Positions 575 to 38,335 are shown, counted from the stretch's first letter. The stretch: 43,775 nucleotides of DNA from a virus (IMGVR_UViG_3300022305_001387:64001-107775), one strand, 5' to 3'. Program-made: numbers and translations. The notes: generated from the letters alone by a model not told the origin.

Positions 575-1033
575 TTATATTACACCTTTTTGTGTCATTT
601 TTTTCATTAGTTGAGAATAATCTGGAACTTCATTGATTTGTACCATTGATATATCTGAACTTGGACGAGCTGTTGCAAGCATTCCATTTATATCACCAAT
701 TGCGGCTTCTTTTGGTTGAAACAAAGAAACAGGATTTATGTTATCTGTTGTGTAATTGTAATTATCACTATCATCTTGGTCCATTGATTTTGCTGTTTCA
801 AGTAAAAGACTATTTAGCGGAGAAGAGTTTGCATATTTAAAATCAACGTTTCTTTGATAAGTCTCAGGCGTATTTAAAGTCAAAGGAATTTCTGATTTTT
901 TCATTTCTCTAATGACATTGTTAATTCCTACAGAGTTTTGTTTGGATTCTGATAATATTTTTGGTAACTCTTGTCTTAGTGCCCTTGTAACTTCTTCTCT
1001 AATTAATTTTCTTAATAAATCTATTTTTGCCAT
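575..1033 (-). CDS. Hypothetical protein, candidate head-internal protein
   Basis: Clean ORF with its own ATATTTAT motif 5 nt upstream; N-terminal LLRKLIREE and further L-x-E sites (ILSE, LLLE). Confidence 0.6.
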   Translation of the reverse strand: MAKIDLLRKLIREEVTRALRQELPKILSESKQNSVGINNVIREMKKSEIPLTLNTPETYQRNVDFKYANSSPLNSLLLETAKSMDQDDSDNYNYTTDNINPVSLFQPKEAAIGDINGMLATARPSSDISMVQINEVPDYSQLMKKMTQKGVI

Positions 1034-1038
1034 ATTCT

Positions 1039-1046
1039 ATAAATAT
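1039..1046 (-). promoter_or_regulatory. ATATTTAT motif (candidate phage promoter)
   Basis: Sense-oriented, 5 nt before ATG 1033. Confidence 0.55.
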
Positions 1047-9391: not shown

Positions 9392-9399
9392 ATATTTAT
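9392..9399 (+). promoter_or_regulatory. ATATTTAT motif heading the kinase/nucleotidyltransferase/HAD operon
   Basis: 4 nt before ATG 9404. Confidence 0.55.
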
Positions 9400-9403
9400 A
9401 TGT

Positions 9404-10207
9404 ATGGTATCGTTAAAATCTTTGTTTTTAGAAAAAGAAAATTCACAACCTATAGCTGTATTTATGGCTGGTTCTGCTGGAGCTGGCAAAACTTCGTTTA
9501 GGAAAAAATATCTAGATAGTATAGGAGATTTTACTATATTAAATATAGATGATGAGTATGAGCCTCTATTGAAAGCGGCTAATTTACCTTTAGATTTTAG
9601 AAAATATACTTCATCTGATCAACTTTCTACTGCGGCCAAAGCAATGGGAGCAGCTCAAAAAACGCATAGGCAAAAATATTCTAGTGCTAAAGAAAATTTA
9701 GATCACATAATTATTGATGGAACTGGAGCTTCATATAGAGAAGTGCAAAAGAAAAAACAAGAATTAGAAACTCTTGGATATAAAACTTTAATGATTCTTA
9801 TATTTGTAACTCCAGATGTATCTTTACGTAGAAATATTGTTAGAGGAGAAAAAGGAGGAAGAACACTAATGCCAGCGATAATATTAAGAAGTTGGTCATC
9901 TCTTTTTGATAATATTAGTCAATACGAAAATTTATTTGGTAATAATCTTATTATCTATAAGGCGTATGAAGAATCTGATATAGAATTTCCAAACTTTGAT
10001 CCATCTAGTCAAGAAGTAAAGCAAGCTTTTTTTGATCCTTTTAAAGTTAAAGGAAAAGAAAAATCAGCAGACGAGAAAGCAGAATCTTTACAAAAAATAA
10101 AAGATCTTAATGCTAAAATATCGTCTCAGATAACAAAAATAAAGCACGTAGAATTTGACGATCCTCAAACCATAGTTAATAAATTAAATAGATTTGTAAA
10201 TGCGTGA
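9404..10207 (+). CDS. Zeta-toxin-like / AAA_33 P-loop kinase
   Basis: VFMAGSAGAGKT Walker A, LNIDD, IIIDGTG, SLRRNIVRGEKGGR lid arginines. Confidence 0.8.
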   Translation: MVSLKSLFLEKENSQPIAVFMAGSAGAGKTSFRKKYLDSIGDFTILNIDDEYEPLLKAANLPLDFRKYTSSDQLSTAAKAMGAAQKTHRQKYSSAKENLDHIIIDGTGASYREVQKKKQELETLGYKTLMILIFVTPDVSLRRNIVRGEKGGRTLMPAIILRSWSSLFDNISQYENLFGNNLIIYKAYEESDIEFPNFDPSSQEVKQAFFDPFKVKGKEKSADEKAESLQKIKDLNAKISSQITKIKHVEFDDPQTIVNKLNRFVNA

Positions 10208-10790
10208 TTACTCTAAAATAGGATTTGAAATAATAGAAGAGTTACTTAAAGAAGTTAATAATAAAACTGGGCCTTGTTTCTTTCCTGGAAAATTTAAGCC
10301 TGTCCATAAAGGCCATTTTGAAGCCGCGAATTATTTATCAAAGCAACCAAATGTAAATATGGTGTATGTTATAATAAGTAATGTAGAGAAATTTGGTATA
10401 ACTGATCAAGACAGTCTTAAAATGTGGACAGATTATTTAAAAGCATCGCCTAATAATAATATAAAAGTAAAAATTTCAACTGAAGGATCTCCTATCAAAG
10501 ACATTTATAGAGAAGTTAATCAAAATCCTGAATGGCCAAAAATATATGTTGCTGCAGCTAAAGAAGAAGTTGAAAACGAAGGCTACTTCAAAGATTTAAT
10601 AGCTAAATTTCCAGATCGAGTTGAATCCATAATAATACCAGATCAATTTGGTAGAATAAGTGCTACTCAAATGAGAGATGCACTAAAGAGAGGAGATTTC
10701 AAAAAATTTGCTGAGTTTTTACCAGCAGCGGCATATAATAAAGGCATTACTAAAGACGTTTTCGGAATGCTAACAAAGATTATAAAATGA
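10200..10790 (+). CDS. HIGH-superfamily nucleotidyltransferase (cytidylyltransferase-like; NadD/NadM/CoaD fold)
   Basis: FFPGKFKPVHKGHF (HxGH) and RISATQMRDAL (ISSTxIR-like). Confidence 0.82.
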   Translation: MRDYSKIGFEIIEELLKEVNNKTGPCFFPGKFKPVHKGHFEAANYLSKQPNVNMVYVIISNVEKFGITDQDSLKMWTDYLKASPNNNIKVKISTEGSPIKDIYREVNQNPEWPKIYVAAAKEEVENEGYFKDLIAKFPDRVESIIIPDQFGRISATQMRDALKRGDFKKFAEFLPAAAYNKGITKDVFGMLTKIIK

Positions 10791-11671
10791 CAAATGAACA
10801 AAAAGTAGAGATAATAAAAGACTTCTTACTTTATTGTAAAGAGTTTTTAGATATAAATAAGCTTCCTAAAATAAAACTTATAACAGATCATGATTGGGTT
10901 GTATCTCAAAGAAGCTTTGGTCGCTACGAACCAAGAAAAAATACACTTTTTGTGTATATTGGTAATAGAAATTTAGCGGATATATTTAGAACAATATCCC
11001 ATGAACTAACACATCATAAACAAAATGAAGAAGGACGTCTTTCAGCAGGATCTGGCGCTACTGGAAGTGATATAGAGAATGAAGCCAATGCATATTCTGG
11101 TATAATAATGAGAAATTATGGTCAAACAAATGCACTAATATATGAATCAAAATTGATGAATATATTAGAAATGCCAAAAAATACTAGATTTACTATATTT
11201 TGTGATATGGATGGAGTTTTATGTGATTTCAATGCTCAATTTGATCATTATTATGGAAAATCTCCAACAGAATATTCAAAAGAAAAAGGTCCTGAGATAT
11301 TGAGACAAGCTGTAAATGAAATAGGAGAGAAATATTGGTCTCAAATGCCATGGCATCCAGGTTCACAACTTCTTTGGGACTATATTAGTGAATATTCTCC
11401 TATTATAATAACTAGTCCTAGTACATTTGAATTCGCACAAAAAGGAAAATTAGAATGGATAAAAACCCATTTAAATCCGCAACCACAAACAGTAATATTT
11501 AAACAAACAGGAAATAAACACGATGTATTTAGTGATTATGATCCTAAAAAATCTATATTAATAGACGATTATTTTAGAAATACAATGCCTTGGAAAGAAG
11601 CAGGCGGCGTAGGAATAACATTTAGAAATCCAACAGACACAATATCAATACTTAAAAAATTTGGTTTATGA
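10787..11671 (+). CDS. Fusion: HExxH metallopeptidase-like domain + HAD 5'(3')-deoxyribonucleotidase-like domain
   Basis: N-terminal RTISHELTHHKQ...IENEANA; C-terminal FCDMDGVLCDF (DxDG) and ILIDD HAD motifs. Confidence 0.82.
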   Translation: MTNEQKVEIIKDFLLYCKEFLDINKLPKIKLITDHDWVVSQRSFGRYEPRKNTLFVYIGNRNLADIFRTISHELTHHKQNEEGRLSAGSGATGSDIENEANAYSGIIMRNYGQTNALIYESKLMNILEMPKNTRFTIFCDMDGVLCDFNAQFDHYYGKSPTEYSKEKGPEILRQAVNEIGEKYWSQMPWHPGSQLLWDYISEYSPIIITSPSTFEFAQKGKLEWIKTHLNPQPQTVIFKQTGNKHDVFSDYDPKKSILIDDYFRNTMPWKEAGGVGITFRNPTDTISILKKFGL

Positions 11672-12228
11672 GCGTAAAAAAAGAGTTTTCGAAAAGCACA
11701 GTACAAAGAATGAGAAATATTATCACTGGGAATGCAGGTGATAAGACCCAAATACAGACTGGATATGAAAAACATAAAGTTGAAAAACAAGAAGGCGACA
11801 TTTGGGAAGAAGAAGGTAAAAAATGGACTATAAAAAACGGAATAAAACAATCAATTACGAAATTTGATCGATTTAAAGACATTGCAAATATTCCAATATC
11901 TTGCCCAAAATGTAAAAAGCCATTTAAACTTAATGATATTAATAAAAAAATGTATTCTATTCATAGAATGTGTTTAAATTGCGTAACAGAAATAGAAACG
12001 CAAATAAAATTAGAAGGAAATTGGCATGAATATAAATCTAATATCATGAATAATAATAAAAATGCAAGTCTAGAAGACTTTGAAAAGTTTATTGATTCTT
12101 GGATGCTAGAGAATAGTAGTTTTGTTGCTGAAAATGGAGATGTAGAAAGTTGGAGTAAGGTGGATAAGACAAAAGCATATGAAGAAATTAAAAGCAATAT
12201 ACAAAAACTTAAAAACACCAAAATATAG
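11668..12228 (+). CDS. Hypothetical protein with CxxC...CxxC zinc ribbon
   Basis: CPKCKK...MCLNC. Confidence 0.65.
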   Translation: MSVKKEFSKSTVQRMRNIITGNAGDKTQIQTGYEKHKVEKQEGDIWEEEGKKWTIKNGIKQSITKFDRFKDIANIPISCPKCKKPFKLNDINKKMYSIHRMCLNCVTEIETQIKLEGNWHEYKSNIMNNNKNASLEDFEKFIDSWMLENSSFVAENGDVESWSKVDKTKAYEEIKSNIQKLKNTKI

Positions 12229-12229
12229 A

Positions 12230-12237
12230 ATATTTAT
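12230..12237 (+). promoter_or_regulatory. ATATTTAT motif
   Basis: 15 nt before ATG 12253. Confidence 0.55.
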
Positions 12238-12252
12238 TAATAAAAATAGGCA

Positions 12253-12891
12253 ATGCCATATTCTATAGATAGAAAAAATAAGTGCGTCTACAAAAAGAAA
12301 GCTAATGGATCAAGAGGAGAAAAGGTCGGATGCACAAAAGGAAGTCTAAATGATTATGTAGCAGCCTTACAAATACATGCAGAAATGAAAATATTTAAAA
12401 AGAAAACATTAAAAGAGCAATTAGAAAATCCTAAAATCCCAGGAGCGCTTAATCAACTCTATGCAGTTCAAAAACCATATTCTGGTTGCGAATTAACTTC
12501 ATTAGTTAGACCTATTGATCCTCTTATGGGTATCGGAGCTGGCCATGAATTAGTACCCGATCAAATACATGCGGTATTTGCAGATGAAGATATGGCAAAT
12601 GATGTTGCATCTGATCTATATGAAATGCATTCCAAACATCAGCAAGCTTTAGAAGAGAAAAAAGGCGATGTTAGTGACAAATTGAAAAAAGCTATCGATG
12701 TTTTAGAGAAAAAAAGAAAAGAACATATGGAATTGGCTAAAGAAGATCCTAAAAATGCTTCTAAGCACAGAGAACATATAGCTCAAATAATGGATAAAGT
12801 AGACGACTTTATGACAAAGCTAGAAAAAATAGAAAAGTCTAAAAAAGAAATAGTAAAAGAAGAAGATAAAAAGAAAAAAATTAAAAAATAA
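12253..12891 (+). CDS. Hypothetical protein with C-terminal coiled coil
   Basis: 212-aa ORF; ATATTTAT 15 nt upstream; internal KTLKEQLE. Confidence 0.6.
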   Translation: MPYSIDRKNKCVYKKKANGSRGEKVGCTKGSLNDYVAALQIHAEMKIFKKKTLKEQLENPKIPGALNQLYAVQKPYSGCELTSLVRPIDPLMGIGAGHELVPDQIHAVFADEDMANDVASDLYEMHSKHQQALEEKKGDVSDKLKKAIDVLEKKRKEHMELAKEDPKNASKHREHIAQIMDKVDDFMTKLEKIEKSKKEIVKEEDKKKKIKK

Positions 12892-13262
12892 TGGAACAAT
12901 TTGTAAAATTTGTATCGACTCTATTTGCTAGTCGTACCCAAGCGCATGTATTTCATCTACAAACTAGAGGTCCAGGATCTCTTGCAAAACATAAAGCTTT
13001 AAATAGTTACTACGATGAAATTGTTGGATTAGTTGATGGTCTTATTGAAAGCACTCAAGGTAGATATGGAATAGTACGTGGATATAGCGGACCTTCTCAG
13101 TTTAAAGAGGATGACGAACCTTTAACTTATTTTCAAGCGCTTTGTCAATACGTAGAAACTATGAGAAAAAATATTCCTCAAGACAGCTATATTCAAAATG
13201 AAGTAGACGAAATAGTTAAATTGATAGAAAGTACAAAGTATAAACTTGAAAATTTACAGTAA
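12891..13262 (+). CDS. Ferritin/Dps-like four-helix protein (DUF5856-type)
   Basis: QAHVFHLQT...KHKALNSYYDEIVGLVDGLIESTQG resembles the Dps/ferritin H..W/H...H..Y...D..E pattern. Confidence 0.7.
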   Translation: MEQFVKFVSTLFASRTQAHVFHLQTRGPGSLAKHKALNSYYDEIVGLVDGLIESTQGRYGIVRGYSGPSQFKEDDEPLTYFQALCQYVETMRKNIPQDSYIQNEVDEIVKLIESTKYKLENLQ

Positions 13263-13591
13263 TGCATCATTTATACGAATTAAACGAAGGGGAATTTTGT
13301 CCGATGTGTTTGAAAGAGTATATCTTAGAGCACGTATCTAAATTAGAAGAGGCTGAGTATAAAGGACGAACAGTCGCATTAGGAAAACCTATGGCAGGCG
13401 ATGTAAAGAAATTTAAAGTGTACGTAAAAAATAATAAAGGCAACGTAGTTAAGGTAAATTTTGGACAAAAAGGCGTTAGAATAAAAAAGAACAACCCAAA
13501 AAGACGTAAAAGCTATAGAGCAAGACACGGATGCGATAAGAATCCAGGTCCTCGTTGGAAAGCAAATTATTGGAGTTGTCGCAAATGGTAA
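13262..13591 (+). CDS. Hypothetical protein: acidic N-terminus, highly basic C-terminal domain
   Basis: KVNFGQKGVRIKKNNPKRRKSYRARHGCD...ANYWSCRKW; L-x-E sites in the N-terminus. Confidence 0.65.
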   Translation: MHHLYELNEGEFCPMCLKEYILEHVSKLEEAEYKGRTVALGKPMAGDVKKFKVYVKNNKGNVVKVNFGQKGVRIKKNNPKRRKSYRARHGCDKNPGPRWKANYWSCRKW

Positions 13592-13594
13592 AAA

Positions 13595-13894
13595 ATGAAA
13601 CTAAAAGACTTATTAGAAATATCAGGACAAGGATTTACTACTAAACAGACATCGTTTGATAAAGATACTGGTAAAATAGGCTGGGACGTAGAATATTTTC
13701 CAGATTTCTCTGAGATTTTAGATAGTATTGATAGCACTTCTAAAGCTCTAGAAAAAACTATACACGATTATAGCATACAAGACGAAGAGATTGCAACAAG
13801 TTTAAAAGGTCTAAAAGCAATAAAATCAATCCTTTTAAAAACATTAGAAAAAAACCACCCTGATTATATAAAAGACTATCATAGTAAAAAATAG
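13595..13894 (+). CDS. Hypothetical protein with MKLKDLLE leader
   Basis: 99-aa ORF within the operon. Confidence 0.6.
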   Translation: MKLKDLLEISGQGFTTKQTSFDKDTGKIGWDVEYFPDFSEILDSIDSTSKALEKTIHDYSIQDEEIATSLKGLKAIKSILLKTLEKNHPDYIKDYHSKK

Positions 13895-13901
13895 ATAAAT
13901 T

Positions 13902-14405
13902 ATGAGTATTAAATTATCATCTTTATTAAAAGAAGATTTCAATGGAGACACATACAATATTGGAATGAAGCAGTATACTACTTCTAGAGCCAAAATGTCT
14001 CAAGTTGAATCAGAGAAAATAAAAGGTGCAGACGGTACGCCTTGTTGGAGAGGTTATAGATATGCTGGTACTGAAAATGGAAAAGATAAATGCGTCGCTA
14101 TGGGAGAAAGCAAAATGTGTAATGAGTGTGGAGGAATGATGTATGAAACTATGTGTATGGAATGTGGATGGGAAGAAGATATGATATTACCTCATGATAA
14201 TGAATTTGATATGGAACAAGAGCCAAGTCAAGACCATGAAGTGGGTATGGCTCAAAATTTATTACAAGATATAATAAAAAACGCAACTGAATTAGCTGAA
14301 AAAATAGGAAATGAAGAGATAAATCTACCAGGTTGGATTCAAGATCATATATCCCAATCACAAAATTATATAAGTCAAGCTAACGTAGGCTACCACACAC
14401 TATAA
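13902..14405 (+). CDS. Modular hypothetical head-associated protein
   Basis: MSIKLSSLLKE leader; PCWRGY...KCV and CNECGG...CMECG modules; DHEVGMAQ...LPGWIQDHISQSQNYI helical module. Confidence 0.6.
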   Translation: MSIKLSSLLKEDFNGDTYNIGMKQYTTSRAKMSQVESEKIKGADGTPCWRGYRYAGTENGKDKCVAMGESKMCNECGGMMYETMCMECGWEEDMILPHDNEFDMEQEPSQDHEVGMAQNLLQDIIKNATELAEKIGNEEINLPGWIQDHISQSQNYISQANVGYHTL

Positions 14406-14409
14406 TAAA

Positions 14410-16134
14410 ATGAAGATACATAAATTATTACAAGCATTACTTCTAAAAGAAGACAATACTGAAAGAATGGATTTGCCTCCAAAAACTTTCGAAGACGATC
14501 CAATGAATTTTATTCTTAAAAAGTATAGCACTTTGAATGATATACTCATAGAAGTAATGGGAGATAACTACAAAGAGTATTTATTGGGCATCTATGTAAT
14601 AGCAGATAAACCAAGTTGTTTTAAAATAGTTTTACACAATAATCAATATTTTTTTATGACGTTTATGGGCAAAGCTTATCAAGCTACCATAGCTGGTAAA
14701 AATTATTTTCTATTAAATGTTGGTGAGAAGCAAAGAGCAATGATTGCTATAACTAGATTGCTAAGATGGGGAAGTCCTCTAAAAACAAAAGGCGCAGAAG
14801 GAGCAGAGCAAGACGCAACAGCTGAGGATACTGGAACAGAAGAAACTCCACCAGCAGAAACAAGCGATACTGGAGCAGAAGGCGGAGAAGAAGAAACACT
14901 TGCTGAAACAAAAAATGTTTTAAGTCTTTTAATAAATGAAAATAGATTATCAGAATTAGCTAGAAACACATATAATATTCTAAGTGATGATGCAAAAAAA
15001 ATAGCTCAAGATTTATTAACTAGAGTCCCTAAAATTAAAAGATCACAAATTAAACCTGCAAAAGCCAATCACATAGTAATTTATAATGATGATAGGGAAA
15101 ACGTAGTATCTGATATAGAAAATTTAGGAATATATGGAAAACGTATAGATAGATCAGGAGGTTTCAAAATTAAAACAAAAAGCGGAGAAAAAATTACTAT
15201 AACAGTTAAGCGAGATAAAACAAGTGGTGAATATTATGAATTAAAGCCTCAAGCTTTAGGAGTAGATTTAGACGTTTTTGTACCGATAAAAACATTGAGA
15301 TCTGAATTAAAAACTGGTATTGAAAATCATCCAAAATTAAACCCTTCACAAAAACAATTTTTACTTGGTATGATGGGTTTCGCAAAGCCATCTCAAAGAG
15401 TTATTAATTTCTGTTTGCAAAATAAAAAATTTATAGCCGAAATAAATAAAAATTTTGGAGAACCTCTAGGTTCTATATTGTATGCAGAAAAAATAAATGG
15501 TAAAGAGGTATTCTTTCCAAAAGCTGGAAACTATCCAATGATAGATTATAGAGTTAAAAAAGCAAACGGTCGAATTGTTGATGTTAGTGCAAAAGCAGAA
15601 GGTATAAAAGGAAATGTCGTTAAATTTGGAGACGTATTGAAAAAAATACGAGAAAAAAATATAGAAGATCAAATGACTAAAGATCAAAAAATAATTTTTG
15701 ACACAGTATTATCTTCACAAGAGGGAGAAAAAGTAAATGTAGCAGTTAAGATTTTAAGACTCGCAGATAAATTTGGAAAACCCGAAACTAAAAATAGATA
15801 CAAAGAATTTTTGAGAGACAATCCTGGATTTTTAGATTCTTCTAAAAAAGATCTTGAAAAATGGCCTAAATATGGATACGATTCAAGAACAATGGCATCA
15901 ATACAAAAAGATATTTGTAAAGATATTAATAATAACCCTGAATTAAATTTTTCAAAACTATTTCAACAAGCTGTTGGTATAGTATACGTAAAATTTGAAT
16001 TCAATAAACAGACTTTAGAACCTAAAGTGAATGAGTATAAGTCCGAAGATATATCAGTATATCTCGAATCAAAAGCAAGTTTCGATCACGTAGGCGAAAA
16101 TATAGGATTTCAAATTCAAACTAAAACTCACTAA
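14410..16134 (+). CDS. Two-part protein; C-terminal region possibly restriction-endonuclease-like
   Basis: An acidic linker (EDTGTEETPPAETSDTGAEGGEEE) separates the domains; FGEPLG...YPMIDY...VDVSAK resembles a PD-(D/E/S)xK core. Confidence 0.5.
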   Translation: MKIHKLLQALLLKEDNTERMDLPPKTFEDDPMNFILKKYSTLNDILIEVMGDNYKEYLLGIYVIADKPSCFKIVLHNNQYFFMTFMGKAYQATIAGKNYFLLNVGEKQRAMIAITRLLRWGSPLKTKGAEGAEQDATAEDTGTEETPPAETSDTGAEGGEEETLAETKNVLSLLINENRLSELARNTYNILSDDAKKIAQDLLTRVPKIKRSQIKPAKANHIVIYNDDRENVVSDIENLGIYGKRIDRSGGFKIKTKSGEKITITVKRDKTSGEYYELKPQALGVDLDVFVPIKTLRSELKTGIENHPKLNPSQKQFLLGMMGFAKPSQRVINFCLQNKKFIAEINKNFGEPLGSILYAEKINGKEVFFPKAGNYPMIDYRVKKANGRIVDVSAKAEGIKGNVVKFGDVLKKIREKNIEDQMTKDQKIIFDTVLSSQEGEKVNVAVKILRLADKFGKPETKNRYKEFLRDNPGFLDSSKKDLEKWPKYGYDSRTMASIQKDICKDINNNPELNFSKLFQQAVGIVYVKFEFNKQTLEPKVNEYKSEDISVYLESKASFDHVGENIGFQIQTKTH

Positions 16135-16488
16135 ATGTCATTCAATTTACAAAAATATCTAATACAGAACAATTTAACTCTGAGAGCTGTTAGAGCTCTT
16201 AGGGAAGAAGAATCTGATGAGGAAAAAGAACCATCGAAAGAAGATTTAAAGTCTACAGAAACAGACATGAGACAGCTGGATAAAGACAAACAACAATTAA
16301 AGCTGCTTCAAGCCAAAGTAAAAGACATTATTTTCAAGTTCACAAAAGATACTCCAAAAGGAAAAGTATTAACTGATGTGACTGCATACAAGAAAGCAAT
16401 TGGCAATCTTCCAGCTAAAGTAAAAGAATTACAAAAGAAAATAAAAGATATAGAAAATCCATCGACAGAAGAAAATGAAGAAGACTAA
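16135..16488 (+). CDS. Hypothetical coiled-coil protein
   Basis: MSFNLQKYLIQNNLT...ALREEE N-terminus. Confidence 0.6.
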   Translation: MSFNLQKYLIQNNLTLRAVRALREEESDEEKEPSKEDLKSTETDMRQLDKDKQQLKLLQAKVKDIIFKFTKDTPKGKVLTDVTAYKKAIGNLPAKVKELQKKIKDIENPSTEENEED

Positions 16489-17533
16489 TATAATACTGTT
16501 AACTGAATTAATGAGAGAAATCTCGTTTGAAAAAGGACATGCTGCGTCTGATAGTTTATATGACATGTCAAATTCAGCTCTAGCTAATATAGATATAGAT
16601 ACAGATTTAGATAAGGGAACAACAGATGATGAAGGTGATTATCAAGAGCTATCAACTAATCACAAAGTATTTGTAAAATCATTAGCAAAAAAAACAACAG
16701 CTATTGCGCAATCAGGAGGATATACGTTATTGTTAAAAAATGGTGCTAAATCTGAATTTGAATATTTTTTAGTAAATAAATCAGCAAAAAAAATAGGAGA
16801 ATTTTTTGTAGCGTCTATGAGAACTGATATAACCACTTATCGTAGATATAATCTACAAAAAGCTTTTGATGTAGTAGTAGAAACAGTACATTGGTCAAAT
16901 TTAGCGAGCGAATTAAGAGGTCAAGGCATTGGAAAACTATTATACACATTAGTATATGATTATGTGAAAAGCAAAGGTAGAGCATTTGGAAGCGATTATA
17001 TGTTATTTGAAGGATCAGCAGGAATGTGGATGACATATATGCCAAAATTAGCTCCCTATTTTGGAATAGTATTGGATGGAGTAATATTACCAGTATCAAA
17101 AGAAGAGTTAACTATAAAAAATAAACCCATCTTTGATATGTTTGGACTTGATGGTTTTATAGCTATGGAAAATCCTCCAAAATTAGTAAGAAAAATCATG
17201 CATAATGTACAAGGCCTTTCATATATAGGCGGAGAATATGGAGTTGCAAAATCTTACGCCAGCATTAACGATATAATTGAAGTAGATATACCGAGAGAGA
17301 GAGACTTTAAACCTGGAATGAAAGATCCCAAACCAAGAAAGGTGAGGTTTATAGATTACGTAAGCGAATTCAAAACAATAAAAGATCTTCTTAAATCAGA
17401 AGTTGAAAATATAGTTGACGAAATTGATACTGCTAAAAAGAAAAAAAATATAAAAGCACTAATATTTGCATTTGCTGATGCAATGGTAGTTGTAAAACAA
17501 ACTCCAAATGGATTAGTTTCAGTAGTAATATAA
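16475..17533 (+). CDS. Protein with central GNAT-like acetyltransferase motif
   Basis: SELRGQGIGKLLYTLV (R/Q-x-x-G-x-G acetyl-CoA loop), then FGSD...SAGMW. Confidence 0.6.
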   Translation: MKKTNIILLTELMREISFEKGHAASDSLYDMSNSALANIDIDTDLDKGTTDDEGDYQELSTNHKVFVKSLAKKTTAIAQSGGYTLLLKNGAKSEFEYFLVNKSAKKIGEFFVASMRTDITTYRRYNLQKAFDVVVETVHWSNLASELRGQGIGKLLYTLVYDYVKSKGRAFGSDYMLFEGSAGMWMTYMPKLAPYFGIVLDGVILPVSKEELTIKNKPIFDMFGLDGFIAMENPPKLVRKIMHNVQGLSYIGGEYGVAKSYASINDIIEVDIPRERDFKPGMKDPKPRKVRFIDYVSEFKTIKDLLKSEVENIVDEIDTAKKKKNIKALIFAFADAMVVVKQTPNGLVSVVI

Positions 17534-17536
17534 TCT

Positions 17537-17872
17537 ATGAAAAAAAACATATTATATATTATTCTAGCTATTATCGCGGTATACTTTCTTGTATGGATAT
17601 TTACACCAAAATTTGAAATGCCAATTGAGTATAAAAATCTTATAGATTCTCTATCTAAACAAAATGATCAATTACAGAGGCAACAAAAATTAATAGATAG
17701 TGCGATCAATTTATATAGTAATAAAGTAGATTCAATAGATAATAAAATTGATAGTATTAAAGAAAAAACTATTATCATTAAAAAGTATTATCATGAAATA
17801 AGTGCTAAAGTAGATACGTTTCAAACATCACAATTAGATTCATTTTTTAACGCAAGGTATCCAAAACCATGA
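17537..17872 (+). CDS. Membrane-anchored coiled-coil protein (i-spanin-like?)
   Basis: N-terminal TM helix ILYIILAIIAVYFLVWIF followed by heptad coiled coil. Confidence 0.55.
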   Translation: MKKNILYIILAIIAVYFLVWIFTPKFEMPIEYKNLIDSLSKQNDQLQRQQKLIDSAINLYSNKVDSIDNKIDSIKEKTIIIKKYYHEISAKVDTFQTSQLDSFFNARYPKP

Positions 17873-18261
17873 AATATCTATTAATTATATTAATATCACT
17901 ATTACCGCTAGCAACAAAATCTCAAGATACCGCTATTAAAATGTCTATCGCAACTGCTAGAAAGGTCGCTAAAGATTTAATAGCGTGCGATAGCGTTAAA
18001 GCCATATTTGAATTGACTAAAGATCAACTTAAATTAACAGAAAACAAAGTTGAAATCAAAGATAGCATTATACAATCGTATAAAGTAAAGTGTTCTATAT
18101 ATGATACAATAGTATCAAACGAAAAAAAGAAATTTGATGAACAAAATAAGTGGATTCAACAAATTTCAAAAGATAATAAAACTCTCAAAGTTAAATTAAC
18201 ATATACTAAAATATCAATGGGAGCTATTATATTGTTTTTAGGATATTTACTTGCTAAGTAA
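17869..18261 (+). CDS. Secreted coiled-coil protein with C-terminal hydrophobic anchor (spanin-partner-like?)
   Basis: Signal peptide MKYLLIILISLLPLATKS|Q; C-terminus ISMGAIILFLGYLLAK; 4-nt overlap with the previous gene. Confidence 0.55.
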   Translation: MKYLLIILISLLPLATKSQDTAIKMSIATARKVAKDLIACDSVKAIFELTKDQLKLTENKVEIKDSIIQSYKVKCSIYDTIVSNEKKKFDEQNKWIQQISKDNKTLKVKLTYTKISMGAIILFLGYLLAK

Positions 18262-24315: not shown

Positions 24316-24438
24316 ATGGCAAAATCAGTTTCGAGCTCAAGTAAACTTAGTTTCGGCAAAAGAAAAAAAGGAAACGCAAAAAAATCTTATAACAAACACA
24401 ATCCAAGACCGAAAAAATATGTCGGACAAGGTAGATAA
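24316..24438 (+). CDS. 40-aa highly basic protein (not in ORF track)
   Basis: MAKSVSSSSKLSFGKRKKGNAKKSYNKHNPRPKKYVGQGR*. Fills the gap exactly: ATG 1 nt after the upstream stop, TAA 2 nt before the next ATATTTAT. Confidence 0.75.
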   Translation: MAKSVSSSSKLSFGKRKKGNAKKSYNKHNPRPKKYVGQGR

Positions 24439-24440
24439 AG

Positions 24441-24448
24441 ATATTTAT
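24441..24448 (+). promoter_or_regulatory. ATATTTAT motif
   Basis: 4 nt before ATG 24453. Confidence 0.55.
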
Positions 24449-24452
24449 TAGT

Positions 24453-26198
24453 ATGAAGACAATAAGCAAACAATACCAAGATCTTTTAGAAGGAAAAATG
24501 AGTAGAGACAATTTCGTTAGAAACTGTCGTCAACAATTTCCTCAATATGTATCTCCTGTAACATCAATAGATGACGCCATTAAAATTCTTAAAGGAAAAA
24601 GAATTATTGCAGAAGCAATGCAGAATATGAATCCTGATGCTGAAAGACAGGGTTATAACGATAATTATGATGGATTTACATTAAAAGATTGTCCATATAC
24701 TGGTATGGACGCGGCTCTATGGAAAGATGGTTGGATGGAAGCCGAGACTGAAAAACAAATGGAACATGATGAACAAACCTATCGTAGAGAAACAGGCGAT
24801 ATGGATTTTGAAATGAATGAAGACGATCGTAGAGATTTAGATCCGAGAGTATTTAGATTACAAAATCAATTTACTCCAGTTCAACTTACAAATAAATTAT
24901 TGCAACAAGGTATGCAAAAATGGGGTAGCGTAGATAACGTGGTTAAATTCGTACAACAAGTATTTCCTGAATTGGATTATGATGCTATTCTTGATATGAT
25001 TAATGCTCATAAAGAAGCTGGTTCTCCAACAGTTAGTATTACTGATGACTTACCATTCTTTGAAAATAAAAAGAAATCTTTGAATGAAGCCACAGAAAAA
25101 TCTGAAGGCAGATATAAAGAAACCATTGGAAAAGATCAATATGGCAGATTCGCCGATTTAGATAATGCAAATCTACAAACTTTTTTAAGAGCTATGGCTT
25201 TTGAAATAAGTCAACAACAAGGATTCGATGATAAAATGCTTCCTAGTTTGATAGAAAAGATTGCAAAAAAAATGAAAAAAGATCCAAATGCTTATAGAGA
25301 ATTAGTAACATCTAATTATGCTGATATAGCAAAGCAAGACGAATCAATGAAAATGGTTCCTGTAAGTGGAAAAAATACCTCAGATAAAGAGAATGCAATG
25401 GAGAAAATAAAAGGACAAGAAAATCCAAAAGCAACTCCAAGCAAAACAGAAAATAGAAAAGGCAAACCTGAAGGTGTAAAAGAAATGGGAATCACGCCTA
25501 AAAAAGCTAAAGGCATTACAGCAGTAATGGATATGCCAGGAAAAGAAAAGATTATAGATCAACTTAAAGAAGCTATAAAAAAATCTTTAAAAGAAGATAC
25601 TCATCCTAAATATAATAGAGGATCTAATGCACATACACCAGATGGTGAAGGCGAAGTAAAAGAAGTTAGAGGCGGAACTATCACTGTAGAATTAAAAGAC
25701 GGGCAAACAAAAGATTATCAAGTAAATACTCTTAATCATTTTGAGAAGAAAAAGAAAGAAGAGGGTATAATGCCAGGAGTTGATTTAGGCGGATCATTTG
25801 AAAAAATGAAAACATCAATGGGAGATGAACAAAAATTCCAAGATCTCGTAAATAAATTTGATTGGTATGCAGAAATGAGCGATGATTCTTCAAAATGGGA
25901 TGCTCAACAAGATATGGAAAATCAAATGAAAGCGTTAGCAAAAACTATTGGAGCTGAAAAAGCTACATCAATTTGGAATGCTAAAGCACCACAAGACAGA
26001 CAAATTAAATCTAATTATTTTATGGAAAAGAAAGAAAAATACGGTAAATTAAAAGAGTATTTGAAAAAAGCTCTTAAGAAAGAAGCAAAGAAATTTAAAG
26101 CAGGAGGAGAAACAATATTCACAAATGATGCTGAAGCGGCTTCAAAAGAAACTGAATTGAAAAAAGCTGGGGTAAAATACACAAAATCAAACGCATAA
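24453..26198 (+). CDS. Modular prohead core/internal protein
   Basis: Leader MKTISKQYQDLLE; modules bounded by IAE, MNE, LNE, LKE, FME, KKE; immediately upstream of the protease. Confidence 0.5.
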   Translation: MKTISKQYQDLLEGKMSRDNFVRNCRQQFPQYVSPVTSIDDAIKILKGKRIIAEAMQNMNPDAERQGYNDNYDGFTLKDCPYTGMDAALWKDGWMEAETEKQMEHDEQTYRRETGDMDFEMNEDDRRDLDPRVFRLQNQFTPVQLTNKLLQQGMQKWGSVDNVVKFVQQVFPELDYDAILDMINAHKEAGSPTVSITDDLPFFENKKKSLNEATEKSEGRYKETIGKDQYGRFADLDNANLQTFLRAMAFEISQQQGFDDKMLPSLIEKIAKKMKKDPNAYRELVTSNYADIAKQDESMKMVPVSGKNTSDKENAMEKIKGQENPKATPSKTENRKGKPEGVKEMGITPKKAKGITAVMDMPGKEKIIDQLKEAIKKSLKEDTHPKYNRGSNAHTPDGEGEVKEVRGGTITVELKDGQTKDYQVNTLNHFEKKKKEEGIMPGVDLGGSFEKMKTSMGDEQKFQDLVNKFDWYAEMSDDSSKWDAQQDMENQMKALAKTIGAEKATSIWNAKAPQDRQIKSNYFMEKKEKYGKLKEYLKKALKKEAKKFKAGGETIFTNDAEAASKETELKKAGVKYTKSNA

Positions 26199-26200
26199 TA

Positions 26201-26839
26201 ATGGATAAAGATTTATTAATAGAATATAGCATATTTACTCCAACAAAAAAAACTCTTTCTGAAGGGCTTAAAAATGGTTCAGTGAATATGATAGTTTCTG
26301 GACTTGTTCAAGCATGCGATAAACCAAATGCGAATAAGAGAATATATCCTTATGATACTCTAAAAATGCAAGTAGATAATTATATAGATGGTCCAATTTC
26401 TGAAAATAGAGCGTTAGGCGAATTAGACCATCCAGAAAGTTCTGTTATAAATTTAAAAAATGTTTCTCATAATATTACAAAACTTTGGTGGGACGGAAAG
26501 AATCTATATGGCGACATAGAAATACTTCCAACTCCATCAGGAAATATTCTAAAACAATTATTTCAAAATAATATTACAGTTGGTATATCATCAAGAGCCA
26601 TGGGAACTGTAACTCCAATAGGCGAAGGCTTAGTCCAAGTAGAAAAAGACTTAGAACTTATCTGCTGGGATTTCGTATCCACACCCTCTACATTTGGAGC
26701 ATATGTAAGACCTGTCCAGAACGCACCAGGACTTCAAGAATCATATATCCACAATACATCTAATAGTAAATATGCTAAAGCAAATAGACTAGTTTCTGAT
26801 ATTATATGCACTTTAGGCGGCTATTGCTGCATAAAATAA
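26201..26839 (+). CDS. Prohead core protease (T4 gp21-like)
   Basis: ALGELDHP (His), GISSRAMG (Ser), WDFVSTPS (Asp); NANKRIYP. Confidence 0.95.
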   Translation: MDKDLLIEYSIFTPTKKTLSEGLKNGSVNMIVSGLVQACDKPNANKRIYPYDTLKMQVDNYIDGPISENRALGELDHPESSVINLKNVSHNITKLWWDGKNLYGDIEILPTPSGNILKQLFQNNITVGISSRAMGTVTPIGEGLVQVEKDLELICWDFVSTPSTFGAYVRPVQNAPGLQESYIHNTSNSKYAKANRLVSDIICTLGGYCCIK

Positions 26840-26986: not shown

Positions 26987-28051
26987 ATGGAAGACATGTA
27001 CAAACAAGCGTTATTAGACGCTAAAGCAGTCCGTGCTAGCGCAATGGCCAATGCCAAAGCCAGTCTCCAAGAGGCTTTCGAACCCAGAATCCAAGAAATG
27101 ATTCGTTTAAAATTATCTGAAGAACTCGATGAAGAGTTATATGAAGAAGATGATATTGACGAAGAAAAGAAAAAGAAAATGGAAGAAGAAGCTGATATGG
27201 AAGAAGGCGATATGGATGAGTCCACGCTTGAAGAAATTCTTGCAGAGCTAGACGAACTAGAAAAACAAGAAGAAGGTGAAGAAGATGAAGAAACAGAAGA
27301 TGGTTCAGAAGCAGCTAATGACACAGAAGACGACGACGCAGAAGATGTGCCTGTTGCAGATGATGAAGCAGCGGCAGAAGAAGTATCTGATGAAACTAAA
27401 ATCATCGATATCACTTTAGGAGATTTAAAACAAGTTTTGCAATCTATTGAATCAAATGGAGGAGAAGAAAACTTTGACGACATGGAAGATGAAACTGAAA
27501 TGGGCGACGAAGAAAACTCTGATTTAGAAATTTCTGATGAAATGGACGAAGAAATCGATCTTGACGAAATCTTGAATAGCCTACAAGAAGAAAAAGAAAA
27601 GGCTAAAAAACAAACAAAAGAAGAAGGTAAGAAAATGGAAGAAAGAAAGAAAATGGAAGAGAAGAAAAAACCAGTAGAAGAGAAAAAGAAAATGGAAGAA
27701 ATGAGAACTACTCTCAATACAGCCAACAAAACAATCAATGTTTTAAGAACCCAATTAACTGAGGTTAATCTCTTAAATGCTAAGCTTCTTTACATGAATA
27801 AGATTTTCAAATCCAAGAATCTTAGTGAATCTCAAAAGGTAAATGTAGTTACAGCTTTAGACAGAGCGTCTAACGTTAAAGAAGCTAAAAACATTTATGA
27901 AACATTGAAAGAGAGTATCCAACCAAGGAAATCTCAATTGATAGAATCAAAAGGTTTCGCCTCCAAACCAGCGGGCGTCGCTCCAAAAAAACCAATCGTA
28001 GAAGCAGATGCGTTTGTTTCTAGATGGCAAAAAATAGCTGGAATTAAATAA
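26987..28051 (+). CDS. Prohead scaffold/core protein
   Basis: Very acidic coiled coil between protease and capsid; LTEVNLLNAKLLY; C-terminal RWQKIAGIK. Confidence 0.85.
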   Translation: MEDMYKQALLDAKAVRASAMANAKASLQEAFEPRIQEMIRLKLSEELDEELYEEDDIDEEKKKKMEEEADMEEGDMDESTLEEILAELDELEKQEEGEEDEETEDGSEAANDTEDDDAEDVPVADDEAAAEEVSDETKIIDITLGDLKQVLQSIESNGGEENFDDMEDETEMGDEENSDLEISDEMDEEIDLDEILNSLQEEKEKAKKQTKEEGKKMEERKKMEEKKKPVEEKKKMEEMRTTLNTANKTINVLRTQLTEVNLLNAKLLYMNKIFKSKNLSESQKVNVVTALDRASNVKEAKNIYETLKESIQPRKSQLIESKGFASKPAGVAPKKPIVEADAFVSRWQKIAGIK

Positions 28052-28072
28052 TAAAAACAATCAAACAAAACT

Positions 28073-29770
28073 ATGGCAAACTTAGTACAATCCCTATTGA
28101 ATGAATCAGCTCAAACAGCTTTTTCAGATCAATATAGCGTAGCTGGCCGACTTACTAAAAAATGGGCTAAATCTGGTCTTTTAGAAGGTTTAGCTGATCA
28201 TGATCGCTCAGCAATGGCTGTGATTCTTGAGAATCAAGCAAAACAATTAGTTATAGAATCATCTAGTACAAACAATGGCGGTGGCATTGGTACTGGCGCA
28301 AACTTCACAGCTGGTGCTGGTGAACAATGGGCTGGCGTTGCTCTTCCATTAGTTCGTAAAATCTTTGGACAAATTGCAGCGAAAGAATTCGTTTCAGTTC
28401 AACCAATGAACTTACCGGCTGGATTGGTATTCTTCTTAGATTTCCAATATGGTGGTTCAAACGGAGTTTCTAATCCAAACTTCCCAACAAACACATCAGT
28501 TTATGGTGCACAAACTGCTAACTTCGGTAATGCCGCTTCAGGCGGTCTTTATGATGCAGGCAAATTCGGTTATTCTTTGAATTTATTCTCAGCTTCTCTA
28601 TCGAGTTCAGCAATAGTAAGTTCTTCTGCTACATGGGCAGATGTAAATTTTGACGCAGGAGCTTCAGGATCTATTGTTAGTAAAACAATAACAAAAATAG
28701 CAGTTCCATTAACTTTTTTAAGTGCATCAGATAGCAATACTGTACGTGCTTTTTCTATTATCCCAGCAGCTGCAAATACAACTCAATTTGGTGAAGCAGA
28801 AACTCTTTCTAATTTTACCGCTATCTCTGCTAGTAATGCAGTGTTCTTTATTAATAAAGCAGTTACAACAACAGGCGCTCAAACATTTGGAGTTTTCTAT
28901 AATAAAGCGACTGATTTTAATGCTCGTGGTGATTTCGAAGATCGTTCTACAACGCCTTCAGTACCTAATGCGTATAGTCCATCTAGCATCTCTATACCAG
29001 AAATTAATGTTGGTATGAGATCTGAAACCATTTCTGCTAAAACTCGTAAGTTGAAAGCACAATGGACTCCAGAATTTGCGCAAGATTTAAATGCTTATCA
29101 TGCTCTTGATGCTGAAGCTGAATTAACAGGTCTACTTTCTGAACACGTTTCTTTAGAAATTGATTTAGAAGTTATGGATCTGTTGATTTCAAATGCAGCC
29201 ACAACAGAATATTGGTCAGCTAAAGTTGGTACAACTTTGACAACTGATACAGCCGGCGTTACTACTTATAATGCTTCTACTGCAGCAAGCGTAGCTGGAC
29301 AATATTACACACAAATGACGTGGTTCCAAACTTTAGGTATCAAACTTCAAAAAGTGTCTAACTTGATTCACCAACGTACTTTACGTGGTGGAGCTAATTT
29401 TATGGTAGTATCTCCTACAGTTGCTACAATCCTTGAATCAATTCCTGGATTTGCTGCTGACACAGACGGAGCTGCTGATACTATGAAATATGCTTTCGGT
29501 GTTCAAAAAATCGGCGCTTTGAATAGTCGCTATAAAGTTTACAAAAATCCATACATGACTGAAAACGTAATCCTTATGGGTTATCGCGGTTCAGCGTTCC
29601 TTGAGTGTGGTGCTGTTTATGCTCCTTACGTGCCTTTGATCATGACACCTCTAGTGTACGATCCTAATACCTTCACTCCAAGAAAAGGTATTATGACTCG
29701 TTACGCATTGAAAATGGTTCGTCCTGAATTCTATGGTCGCGTAGTAATCGCAGATACATCTGTTATCTAA
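28073..29770 (+). CDS. Major capsid protein (T4 gp23-like)
   Basis: VSVQPMNLPAGLVFFLDF, AKTRKLKAQWTPEFAQDLNAYHALDAEAEL, YAPYVPL, FTPRKGIMTRY; codons biased to TTC/AAC/GGT/CGT. Confidence 0.97.
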   Translation: MANLVQSLLNESAQTAFSDQYSVAGRLTKKWAKSGLLEGLADHDRSAMAVILENQAKQLVIESSSTNNGGGIGTGANFTAGAGEQWAGVALPLVRKIFGQIAAKEFVSVQPMNLPAGLVFFLDFQYGGSNGVSNPNFPTNTSVYGAQTANFGNAASGGLYDAGKFGYSLNLFSASLSSSAIVSSSATWADVNFDAGASGSIVSKTITKIAVPLTFLSASDSNTVRAFSIIPAAANTTQFGEAETLSNFTAISASNAVFFINKAVTTTGAQTFGVFYNKATDFNARGDFEDRSTTPSVPNAYSPSSISIPEINVGMRSETISAKTRKLKAQWTPEFAQDLNAYHALDAEAELTGLLSEHVSLEIDLEVMDLLISNAATTEYWSAKVGTTLTTDTAGVTTYNASTAASVAGQYYTQMTWFQTLGIKLQKVSNLIHQRTLRGGANFMVVSPTVATILESIPGFAADTDGAADTMKYAFGVQKIGALNSRYKVYKNPYMTENVILMGYRGSAFLECGAVYAPYVPLIMTPLVYDPNTFTPRKGIMTRYALKMVRPEFYGRVVIADTSVI

Positions 29771-29791
29771 TATATGTGATAATATAAAATG

Positions 29792-29818
29792 AAAAGCCCT
29801 CCTTTTGGAGGGTTTTTT
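29792..29818 (+). terminator. Rho-independent terminator after the major capsid gene
   Basis: AAAAG-CCCTCC-TTTT-GGAGGG-TTTTTT: 6-bp GC-rich stem plus T-tract. Confidence 0.9.
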
Positions 29819-29831
29819 ATTGCATTCAATA

Positions 29832-29839
29832 ATATTTAT
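29832..29839 (+). promoter_or_regulatory. ATATTTAT motif right after the capsid terminator
   Basis: Restarts expression 30 nt before the phoH ATG. Confidence 0.6.
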
Positions 29840-29869
29840 ACTATATAAACGTTTCACAAAAAATCATCT

Positions 29870-30523
29870 ATGGAAAACTCAAAGAAAGTATTGAAAAACG
29901 AAATAAAATATAAAGTACAATTAAATGATGAACAAAAAGATGCTAAGCGACTTATAAGAGAAAATCAAATAGTGATAATAACAGGAAGAGCAGGCTGTGG
30001 TAAAAGTTTAGTTTCTGCACAAACAGCATTAGATTTTTTATTTAAGAAAGAATATGATGAGATATTCATAACAAGAGCAGCCGTAGAAGTAGGACATTCT
30101 TTAGGATTTTTACCAGGTAGTTTGAATGAAAAGTTTGATCCATATTTGGAAGCATTTCAAGAGAATCTTATTAAATGTTATGATAAAGTAAAAATAGAAC
30201 AATTAGTTAATGATGAAAAAGTTAAAGCACTGCCTGTACAATTTATACGTGGCAAAACTATTGACGATGTACTTGTGGTGGAGGAAGCCCAAAATCTCAC
30301 TAAATCTGAGATGCTTGCAATTCTTACAAGGCTTGGCAAGAATGGTAGGATTATAATCAATGGTGATAATGAGCAAAAAGATATTAAAGATCCATACAAT
30401 GGACTGTCTTATGCAATAGATTTATCTAAAAAAATACAAGAAATAAAGTGGATTAAATTAAAACATAACCACCGATCAGATTTAGTAGGTAGAATATTAG
30501 ATTACGAATATAACGGAAAATAA
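29870..30523 (+). CDS. phoH: PhoH-family ATPase
   Basis: GRAGCGKSL, ITRAAVE...LGFLPG, FIRGKT, VEEAQN, LTRLG, GDNEQKD. Confidence 0.93.
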   Translation: MENSKKVLKNEIKYKVQLNDEQKDAKRLIRENQIVIITGRAGCGKSLVSAQTALDFLFKKEYDEIFITRAAVEVGHSLGFLPGSLNEKFDPYLEAFQENLIKCYDKVKIEQLVNDEKVKALPVQFIRGKTIDDVLVVEEAQNLTKSEMLAILTRLGKNGRIIINGDNEQKDIKDPYNGLSYAIDLSKKIQEIKWIKLKHNHRSDLVGRILDYEYNGK

Positions 30524-38327: not shown

Positions 38328-38335
38328 ATATTTAT
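38328..38335 (+). promoter_or_regulatory. ATATTTAT motif
   Basis: 5 nt before ATG 38341. Confidence 0.55.

Follow-up and report, generated by a model that had tools for sequence, protein, structure and literature searches.

In phage T4, propeptides of 10-19 amino acids (aa) are removed by cleavage after L/I-x-E, and diverse internal proteins have only the capsid-targeting sequence (CTS) in common (PMC9026906, PMC3012670). The T4 scaffold gp22 is also cut into pieces after L/I-x-E by the protease gp21, and an Asp at P1 stops processing in T4 but leaves targeting intact (PMC9026906). In the giant phages phiKZ, 201phi2-1 and SPN3US, many head-internal proteins are cut after Glu by a diverged T4-type protease (S/A/G-x-E) and ejected into the host (PMC9026906, PMC5694885, PMC7411985); the principle is already known from T4 and, with other motifs, from the giant phages. 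The present analysis deals with similar leaders in the viral sequence IMGVR_UViG_3300022305_001387:64001-107775, hereafter the window (43,775 nucleotides (nt), with positions counted from its first letter), and in particular in its gene block at 9404-17533. Eight of the 12 block proteins begin with an 8-24 aa helical leader that closes in hydrophobic-x-Glu. The leader is real, N-terminal-specific, portable, class-exchangeable, under protein-level selection and structurally detached, and it is probably the far-T4 counterpart of the T4 CTS, marking head-internal cargo.

The window leaders resemble the CTS of T4 IPI, IPII and IPIII and the propeptide of Alt in that they are short, putative N-terminal propeptides ending in L/I-x-E on unrelated, fast-evolving proteins, and the genome shares with T4 an S77 prohead protease, a gp23-type capsid protein and a scaffold core; an enzyme (Alt) is also among the T4 cargo (PMC9026906, PMC3012670). 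Unlike the T4 CTS, the leader of this lineage has the sequence MIKLxDILxE plus two other classes. Each genome has more tagged genes, most of them arrayed in the interval that separates the exonuclease gene from terL. A P-loop kinase, a nucleotidyltransferase and a GNAT are among the cargo candidates, the host is of the Bacteroidota type, and the system is known here from sequence alone. The propeptides of T4 gp24, gp21, gp22 and gp68 are also alike, since the window leaders match M-x-K-h-x-(D/E)-h-L-x-E (h, hydrophobic) and LLIE stands at residue 8 of the window protease and at residue 9 of T4 gp21. Those T4 propeptides of head shell and core are found on structural proteins, whereas in the present lineage enzymes and a large number of small accessory proteins begin with this form too. 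The giant phages differ by a small P3 residue, often long propeptides, no single portable 10-aa tag and genomes 2-3 times larger.

The window covers bases 64,001-107,775 (~44 kb, the right-hand part) of one contig that is 107,775 bp long. It has 30% G+C and encodes a T4-type large terminase, a portal and a PhoH protein, and no Shine-Dalgarno sequences were found ahead of the window genes. The nearest named phages by capsid protein were Flavobacterium phage immuto (53% identity), Microcystis phage Mel-JY01 and Rhodothermus phage RM378, and on this basis the phage, a myovirus, belongs to the "Far-T4" group; it is T4-related with a Flavobacterium-type or Bacteroidota-type host. The gene order of immuto was identical (primase, exonuclease, variable block, terL, portal, head genes), and megablast of the block against phage records gave zero matches.

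Comparison with relatives carried most of the evidence. A total of 80 related loci were retrieved with the portal as query (61-86% portal identity), comprising 960 proteins and 254,506 residues, and a query with the 574-aa block protein alone retrieved one relative only. Among orthologues of the tagged window proteins, the letters of the leader drifted and its kind stayed. At the level of families, in which members had to keep hydrophobic-hydrophobic-(x)-Glu at residues 7-22, the motif was kept upstream of terL by 54 of 126 families and in the head module by 23 of 52 (43-44%), against 1 of 27 (4%) for families downstream of the capsid gene. The control rates were 17.8% for internal 24-aa segments and 10% (9/91) for the early genes of this genome, and the region comparisons gave p=6e-11 (upstream of terL, binomial), 9e-6 (head module, binomial) and 3e-5. 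An N-terminal enrichment over shuffled or early-gene controls had been set beforehand as a test by an earlier interpretation of the window (the sequence-only reading), and the family counts show it over early genes and internal segments. The N-termini quoted in that reading were all present in the sequence at the genes named.

The canonical tag in the relatives was M-I-K-L-x-(D/E)-(I/L)-L-x-E, with Leu or Ile at P3. In its strict form it headed 45 proteins in 20 non-homologous clusters, often in consecutive genes just upstream of terL, and the strict core I[KRS]L..[IL][IL].E had 38 occurrences at residue 2-3 and 13 at internal positions among the 254,506 residues. Approximately 47 of the 51 orthologues of the kinase began with MI(K/R/S)L..LL.E (e.g. 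MIKLIDILKE followed by VVGGPKAIFLAGSAGAGKT), and in the 49 full-length ones L4 was invariant and E10 was conserved in at least 90%. All orthologues of the nucleotidyltransferase (120/120) kept h-L-x-E at about residue 18, followed by a linker of 6-7 aa and then the first strand, GPCF(F/Y)PGKF. Orthologues of the 13902 protein (block genes are named by their start; Table 1) began with MIKLKEILTE, MKLKDILKE or MIKLKNLLPE, h-h-x-E was kept in 21/21 distinct orthologue N-termini of the 14410 family, and the 13262 family showed a conserved C-terminal domain with a variable N-terminus, some homologues carrying the canonical tag MIKLLKLLSE. Further leader classes were M.FNL.KFL.ENKLT...E, found on 16135 and on immuto gp076/gp077, and ..RLQKLAGLL.E; in the 16135 family, MSFNLEKYLVENNLT..IREE was present in 18/19 orthologues.

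The exchange of classes was clearest in the GNAT family, where the mature start ISF.KGHA was preceded by MIKLTDLVKE, by MKKTNIILLTELMRE (the window form) or by M..RLQKLAGLL.ESEDLEE, depending on the phage. The junction Glu (E15) was invariant in all 25 sequences of the family alignment (A1) while the three leader classes alternated upstream of it. The swapping of classes before one mature GNAT domain indicates that the leader is an exchangeable module and not part of the fold of each protein. The AlphaFold2 models agree with this: predicted local distance difference test (pLDDT) values were 91.2 overall and 55 for residues 1-10 of the kinase, and 84.5 overall and <50 for residues 1-22 of the GNAT-fold protein, and the homology of the kinase to PezT and zeta toxin (best solved relatives, 1.6e-6 over residues 10-146) began only at residue 10.

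The strict core also linked the leaders to the scaffold. All 13 internal matches were ISL(D/E)E(I/L)LAEL in scaffold homologues; these copies are orthologous and represent few independent events. The window scaffold contained TLEEILAEL at aa 80-88 (nt 27224-27250) and IDLDEILNSL at aa 190-199 (nt 27554-27583). The likeness of the tag to a scaffold segment suggests targeting by co-assembly with the scaffold. In the T4 records, gp24 starts with MAKINELLRE, gp21 with MNEPQLLIE, gp22 with MLKEQLIAE and gp68 with ..HELVLE, and gp24, listed there only as "cleaved by gp21", is cut after E10. The LIE-9 of gp21 fits the cleavage logo of gp21 itself (PMC9026906). By these starts, the far-T4 tag is nearer to the propeptides of proven gp21 substrates than to the T4 IP-type CTS quoted in the sequence-only reading, from which MIKLxDILxE differs; it is CTS-like by behaviour and belongs to another sequence family.

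A gp21-type protease in this phage, as presumed in the sequence-only reading, was confirmed. The window protease showed 31% identity to T4 gp21 over 153 residues, and its GELDHP and GISSRAMG aligned with GELNHP and GVSSRGLG of T4. The catalytic residues of Peptidase_S77 are those of the conserved His and Ser motifs. With the Peptidase_S77 match and the kept GEL(D/N)HP and G(I/V)SSR motifs, the premise of a gp21-like protease holds. The leader type was also found, as had been stated, on the capsid protein, the protease and the core protein, and in addition inside the scaffold. The N-terminal motif of the protease was kept in 36/36 orthologues, and that of the 581-aa core protein in 27/35, the immuto orthologue beginning with MRTLQEKYNAIQE. 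For the capsid protein, 17/17 orthologues started with M..(L/I)(V/I)NSLL(N)E followed by S, which resembles the start of T4 gp24, and LVIE followed by SSS at aa 59-62 is a probable delta-domain-type site.

Tests within this genome used the 160 called genes, with the Glu at residues 6-20 and the expectation taken from internal positions. L-L-x-E was found in 6 proteins against ~1 expected (Poisson p=5e-4), distributed as 4/12 in the block, 2/27 in the head/tail part and 0/97 in the early region at 1-51.6 kb (Fisher p=3e-4). Within the block, the bare motif [LI]-x-E was likewise over-represented, at 6/12 proteins compared with 27/148 elsewhere (Fisher p=0.018). A 12-column tag matrix trained only on other phages placed 13902 as the top site of 31,527 windows in the genome. 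De novo motif discovery by zero-or-one-occurrence-per-sequence expectation maximisation (ZOOPS-EM) on 141 N-termini of the genome gave a degenerate K/L/I-rich profile that was not better separated from shuffled controls than expected; the method is uninformative at this sample size, and the comparative tests were used in its place.

In sense orientation, the motif ATATTTAT closely preceded the majority of late and structural genes, and the primase and exonuclease genes had no copy ahead of them. One copy was located at 9392..9399 (+), 4 nt before the kinase ATG, a second at 12230-12237, 15 nt before gene 12253, and a further one 5 nt upstream of the 575-1033 gene. The sequence-only reading had this motif as common to the block and the structural genes and lacking from the primase/exonuclease unit, which is right as to placement; the count in the window (19) was not above shuffles (13.5 +/- 3.4), so that placement alone is non-random. 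The placement fits late co-expression of the block and the head genes. As a separate observation, the motif stood only 4-5 nt before the ATG at 9392-9399, 24441-24448, 1039-1046 (-) and 38328-38335, three of these genes being leader-bearing, which is too close for a classic -10 element with a 5' untranslated region and suggests near-leaderless late mRNAs or another role.

From the T4 precedent we infer core binding, cleavage, retention in the virion, ejection and a takeover or anti-defence role for the tagged proteins. The leader would form an amphipathic helix of the canonical consensus or of at least two further classes and would mimic the repeated scaffold segment, by which the attached protein would be drawn into the assembling prohead core. 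The gp21-type S77 protease would remove the leader after its terminal Glu (P3 Leu or Ile), and the trimmed proteins would be kept alongside the DNA inside the head and would probably pass into the host on infection. This is the sequence-only reading in a narrower form, and it is the one that needs the fewest assumptions. The likely cargo in the window would be the zeta/PezT-like P-loop kinase, the HIGH-type nucleotidyltransferase, the GNAT-fold protein and several small and large proteins without an assigned function. A prohead-directed signal that is removed by the protease is a likely role for the leader by this analogy, and the actual delivery of the tagged enzymes into the host is close to an even call, leaning slightly against. 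A wider reading, in which the MIKL-type leader and its interchangeable sister classes would serve far-T4 and related uncultured myoviruses as a general label, recognisable from sequence, for the proteins that they inject, is rather unlikely. Under it, mimicry of an oligomerisation segment of the scaffold would let this phage deliver, at the moment of DNA entry, the zeta-like kinase, the NMNAT-like nucleotidyltransferase, the GNAT and, from outside the window, a ParB-like nuclease-type protein as a pre-emptive takeover or anti-defence kit (for example, for repair of nucleotide or NAD-type metabolites or for acetylation of a host target).

The resemblance of the tag to an internal scaffold segment would also suit a scaffold-like assembly helix, whose proteins are only transiently in the prohead core and, as with T4 gp68 or the bulk of gp22, are broken down or leave the head during maturation, the enzymes then acting in the infected cell or prohead without being injected. 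Several T4 core proteins are indeed cleaved and lost from the head (Table 1, PMC9026906), and several of the tagged proteins resemble parts of a scaffold in their acidity and low complexity. However, well-folded enzymes such as the kinase (pLDDT 91) and the GNAT are unlikely scaffold material, no pattern of internal cleavage motifs was seen in the bodies of the kinase and GNAT-type enzymes, and the T4 proteins with a single N-terminal CTS (IPs, Alt) are retained and ejected; this explanation is judged improbable. Common N-terminal tags on unrelated phage proteins can carry other meanings, and the kinase, the nucleotidyltransferase and the NT5C protein resemble one metabolic module, which would accord with a handle for a partner outside the capsid, i.e. 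a modifying enzyme, a chaperone, a timed proteolytic activation or inactivation in the cytoplasm, or an oligomerisation helix of a multi-enzyme complex. Such a handle is given a slim chance, since the tag always closes in a T4-type protease motif, is common to the capsid protein, the protease and the scaffold, and is limited to late and head-proximal genes, and no candidate modifying enzyme co-occurred in the block.

The resemblance might further be a by-product of composition or of a signal in the nucleic acid, either because an AT-rich, Shine-Dalgarno-free genome favours starts of the type ATG-ATT-AAA-TTA (M-I-K-L) or because the tag is a DNA seam for the exchange of cassettes. The low G+C content and the many genes that begin with M-K or M-I-K are in keeping with this. 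However, 32 distinct canonical tags showed synonymous variety at each conserved residue (Ile ATT/ATC/ATA, Lys AAA/AAG, Leu six codons, Asp GAT/GAC, Glu GAA/GAG), which indicates selection on the protein, so that neither a DNA seam nor an mRNA start element can be the chief cause. The early genes, of equal composition, were without the motif (LLxE and relaxed form at the rates given above), and pure composition was rejected as the origin of the tag on the early-gene and internal controls. The conserved Glu at position 10 and the copies inside the scaffold are also left unexplained, and this explanation is hardly credible.

The reading of the leaders as a CTS counterpart is opposed by several points. 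The bare T4 motif [LI]-x-E was not enriched genome-wide (20.6% observed against 16.1% expected), and the primase, which is not a plausible head protein, carries a GLLE at residue 12, with GFIE as its conserved counterpart in immuto. The motif alone is therefore not diagnostic, and the caveat of the sequence-only reading that L-x-E is low in information was right. Relative to the canonical MIKL form, the tags of the window itself are degenerate, and only 13902 scored high with the cross-phage matrix; the window tags being too diverged or offset for a rigid matrix, the N-termini of orthologues were used instead. Four block genes (10787, 11668, 12253 and 12891) are without any leader, with the motif in 2/7, 0/9, 2/9 and 0/11 of their orthologue N-termini, respectively; the claim of leaders on unrelated proteins of the block thus stands for eight genes, with that of 13262 weak, and falls for these four. 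One leader-bearing gene (575-1033) is located in the baseplate cluster, and in immuto the nucleotidyltransferase domain is part of a 907-aa protein that has no clear tag. The P1-Glu specificity of the window protease is assumed from T4 and phiKZ, and complex prediction for the protease with residues 1-40 of the 13902 protein returned a score of 0.00, which carries no weight either way. A reason to pre-package a kinase or a nucleotidyltransferase is also not obvious.

No description of the tag or of enzyme cargo in Far-T4 phages was found in the Far-T4 genomics paper (PMC4360716) or in the open-access full text of the literature on the CTS and prohead proteases. If the leaders do act as a CTS, the capsid-carried, injected protein set of a large group of environmental phages could be listed from sequence alone, and this set would comprise the first effectors met by the host and be a likely reservoir of anti-defence functions. 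The T4 CTS principle, studied almost only in T-even phages, would extend to Bacteroidota phages with new kinds of enzyme cargo. A concrete targeting mechanism is suggested, namely imitation of a scaffold segment by the tag, and a natural 10-residue tag would become available for loading foreign proteins into non-coli phage capsids. The features of the window are listed in Table 1.

Table 1. Leader-bearing genes, block genes and head genes of the window
Feature	Coordinates	Strand	Leader or motif	Database match or remark
152-aa protein	575..1033	-	MAKIDLLRKLIRE (nt 995-1033)	baseplate cluster
P-loop kinase (Zeta_toxin/AAA_33)	9404..10207	+	MVSLKSLFLE, aa 1-10 (nt 9404-9433)	Pfam Zeta_toxin 1.6e-13
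Cytidylyl/NMN-adenylyltransferase-like nucleotidyltransferase	10200..10790	+	...IIEELLKE, aa 1-18 (nt 10200-10253)	PHROG cytidyltransferase/NMNAT matches
HELTHH domain + NT5C nucleotidase	10787-11671	+	none	Pfam/PHROG
Zinc-finger protein	11668-12228	+	none	Pfam/PHROG
Gene 12253	12253-12891	+	none	
DUF5856 protein	12891-13262	+	none	Pfam
Small basic DUF5754-type protein	13262..13591	+	MHHLYELNE (weak)	
99-aa protein	13595..13894	+	MKLKDLLE (nt 13595-13618)	near-canonical leader
167-aa acidic protein	13902..14405	+	MSIKLSSLLKE (nt 13902-13934)	
574-aa protein	14410..16134	+	MKIHKLLQALLLKE (nt 14410-14451)	
117-aa acidic protein	16135..16488	+	MSFNLQKYLIQNNLT...ALRE (nt 16135-16206)	second leader class
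GNAT-fold protein	16475..17533	+	MKKTNIILLTELMRE (nt 16475-16519)	
581-aa head-module ("core") protein	24453..26198	+	MKTISKQYQDLLE (..YQDLLE)	between portal and protease
Prohead protease	26201..26839	+	MDKDLLIE and ...TLSE	Peptidase_S77 1e-24, 87.6 bits (cut-off 27)
Acidic scaffold protein	26987..28051	+	internal tag-like motifs (see text)	
Major capsid protein, gp23 family	28073..29770	+	MANLVQSLLNE	Pfam Gp23 4.5e-75

With regard to the identities of the tagged proteins, those of three enzymes given in the sequence-only reading were credible. The Zeta_toxin and PezT/zeta matches of the kinase indicate its fold class and not its substrate; AAA_33 also matched. The nucleotidyltransferase had a HIGH-type motif immediately after the first strand. 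The 16475-17533 gene gave no Pfam match, and all top Foldseek PDB matches of its model were GNATs (E ~2e-4), as were the Atlas leads; with the acetyl-CoA motif RGxGxGK invariant in alignment A1, it is by its model a GNAT fold with an acetyl-CoA motif and a predicted acetyltransferase. Another enzyme that was named as cargo, the peptidase/nucleotidase at 10787, has no leader. For 13595, 13902, 14410 and 16135, no family was returned by Pfam, PHROG and Atlas searches, and the labels "putative nuclease" (14410) and "nucleic-acid binder" found no support there. The matches of 14410 in the Atlas were only to unnamed viral clusters, and its nuclease label, which had rested only on Atlas leads at 0.85, was dropped.

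The fusion of a zincin-like HELTHH domain to NT5C at 10787-11671 was arranged differently in immuto (27131-30455), where the HExxH part belongs to the 907-aa "NadR/NMNAT" protein and a gene of its own encodes NT5C, headed by an MKKVMGNLADLLLEE leader (LLLEE). With NT5C tagged and the nucleotidyltransferase untagged in immuto, cargo status evidently shifts between relatives.

Leaders also occurred outside 9404-17533: on the 575-1033 gene (-), on the head genes, and on genes at genome positions 50053 and 50615. The immuto protein syntenic with 575-1033, gp114, begins with MKLDLLKKLIKE followed by AVKEAVREELTVILSE. At genome 50053-50610, outside the window, a 185-aa protein carried the leader MKLMSILLE followed by ADAE and then two long hydrophobic, transmembrane-like stretches, with ATATTTAT 4 nt ahead of the gene; this may be an ejection-type protein that inserts into a membrane. 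The next tagged gene (genome 50615-51544) encoded a 309-aa protein with the leader MKKEYLKRLIEGLLE followed by AEEEE and a ParB-like nuclease-type "VIDGHHRW" motif; its Pfam ParBc_2 match was only 0.0093, and it is possibly another tagged enzyme. In Mel-JY01 (10215-12134 and 25712-26437), MGKLINILLSE was found on a cytidylyltransferase-like protein and MISLKSLIKH.. on a 241-aa protein. As Mel-JY01 is a more distant, cyanobacterial far-T4 relative, the tag system may reach beyond Bacteroidota phages.

Directly upstream of terL, at 17537-18261, two overlapping small genes were present, one with an N-terminal transmembrane helix and the second with a signal peptide and a C-terminal hydrophobic tail, and the pair resembles a lysis/spanin-like pair. 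The leader motif was found in 0/16 and 0/11 members of the two families. A Sec or lipoprotein signal was rejected as an identity for the leaders, which have no hydrophobic core, true signal peptides being present on 17537 and 17869. Just ahead of the 581-aa core gene, at 24316-24438, a gene without a leader encoded a very basic 40-aa peptide (isoelectric point 11.3; ..FGKRKTG.AQKSFNKH..) that was conserved in 21 relatives and may be a DNA-binding head-internal peptide. The large terminase subunit apparently starts at a TTG (18336), which is favoured over a downstream ATG since the orthologues begin with MSEQQSIKEKIKEEF at the matching position.

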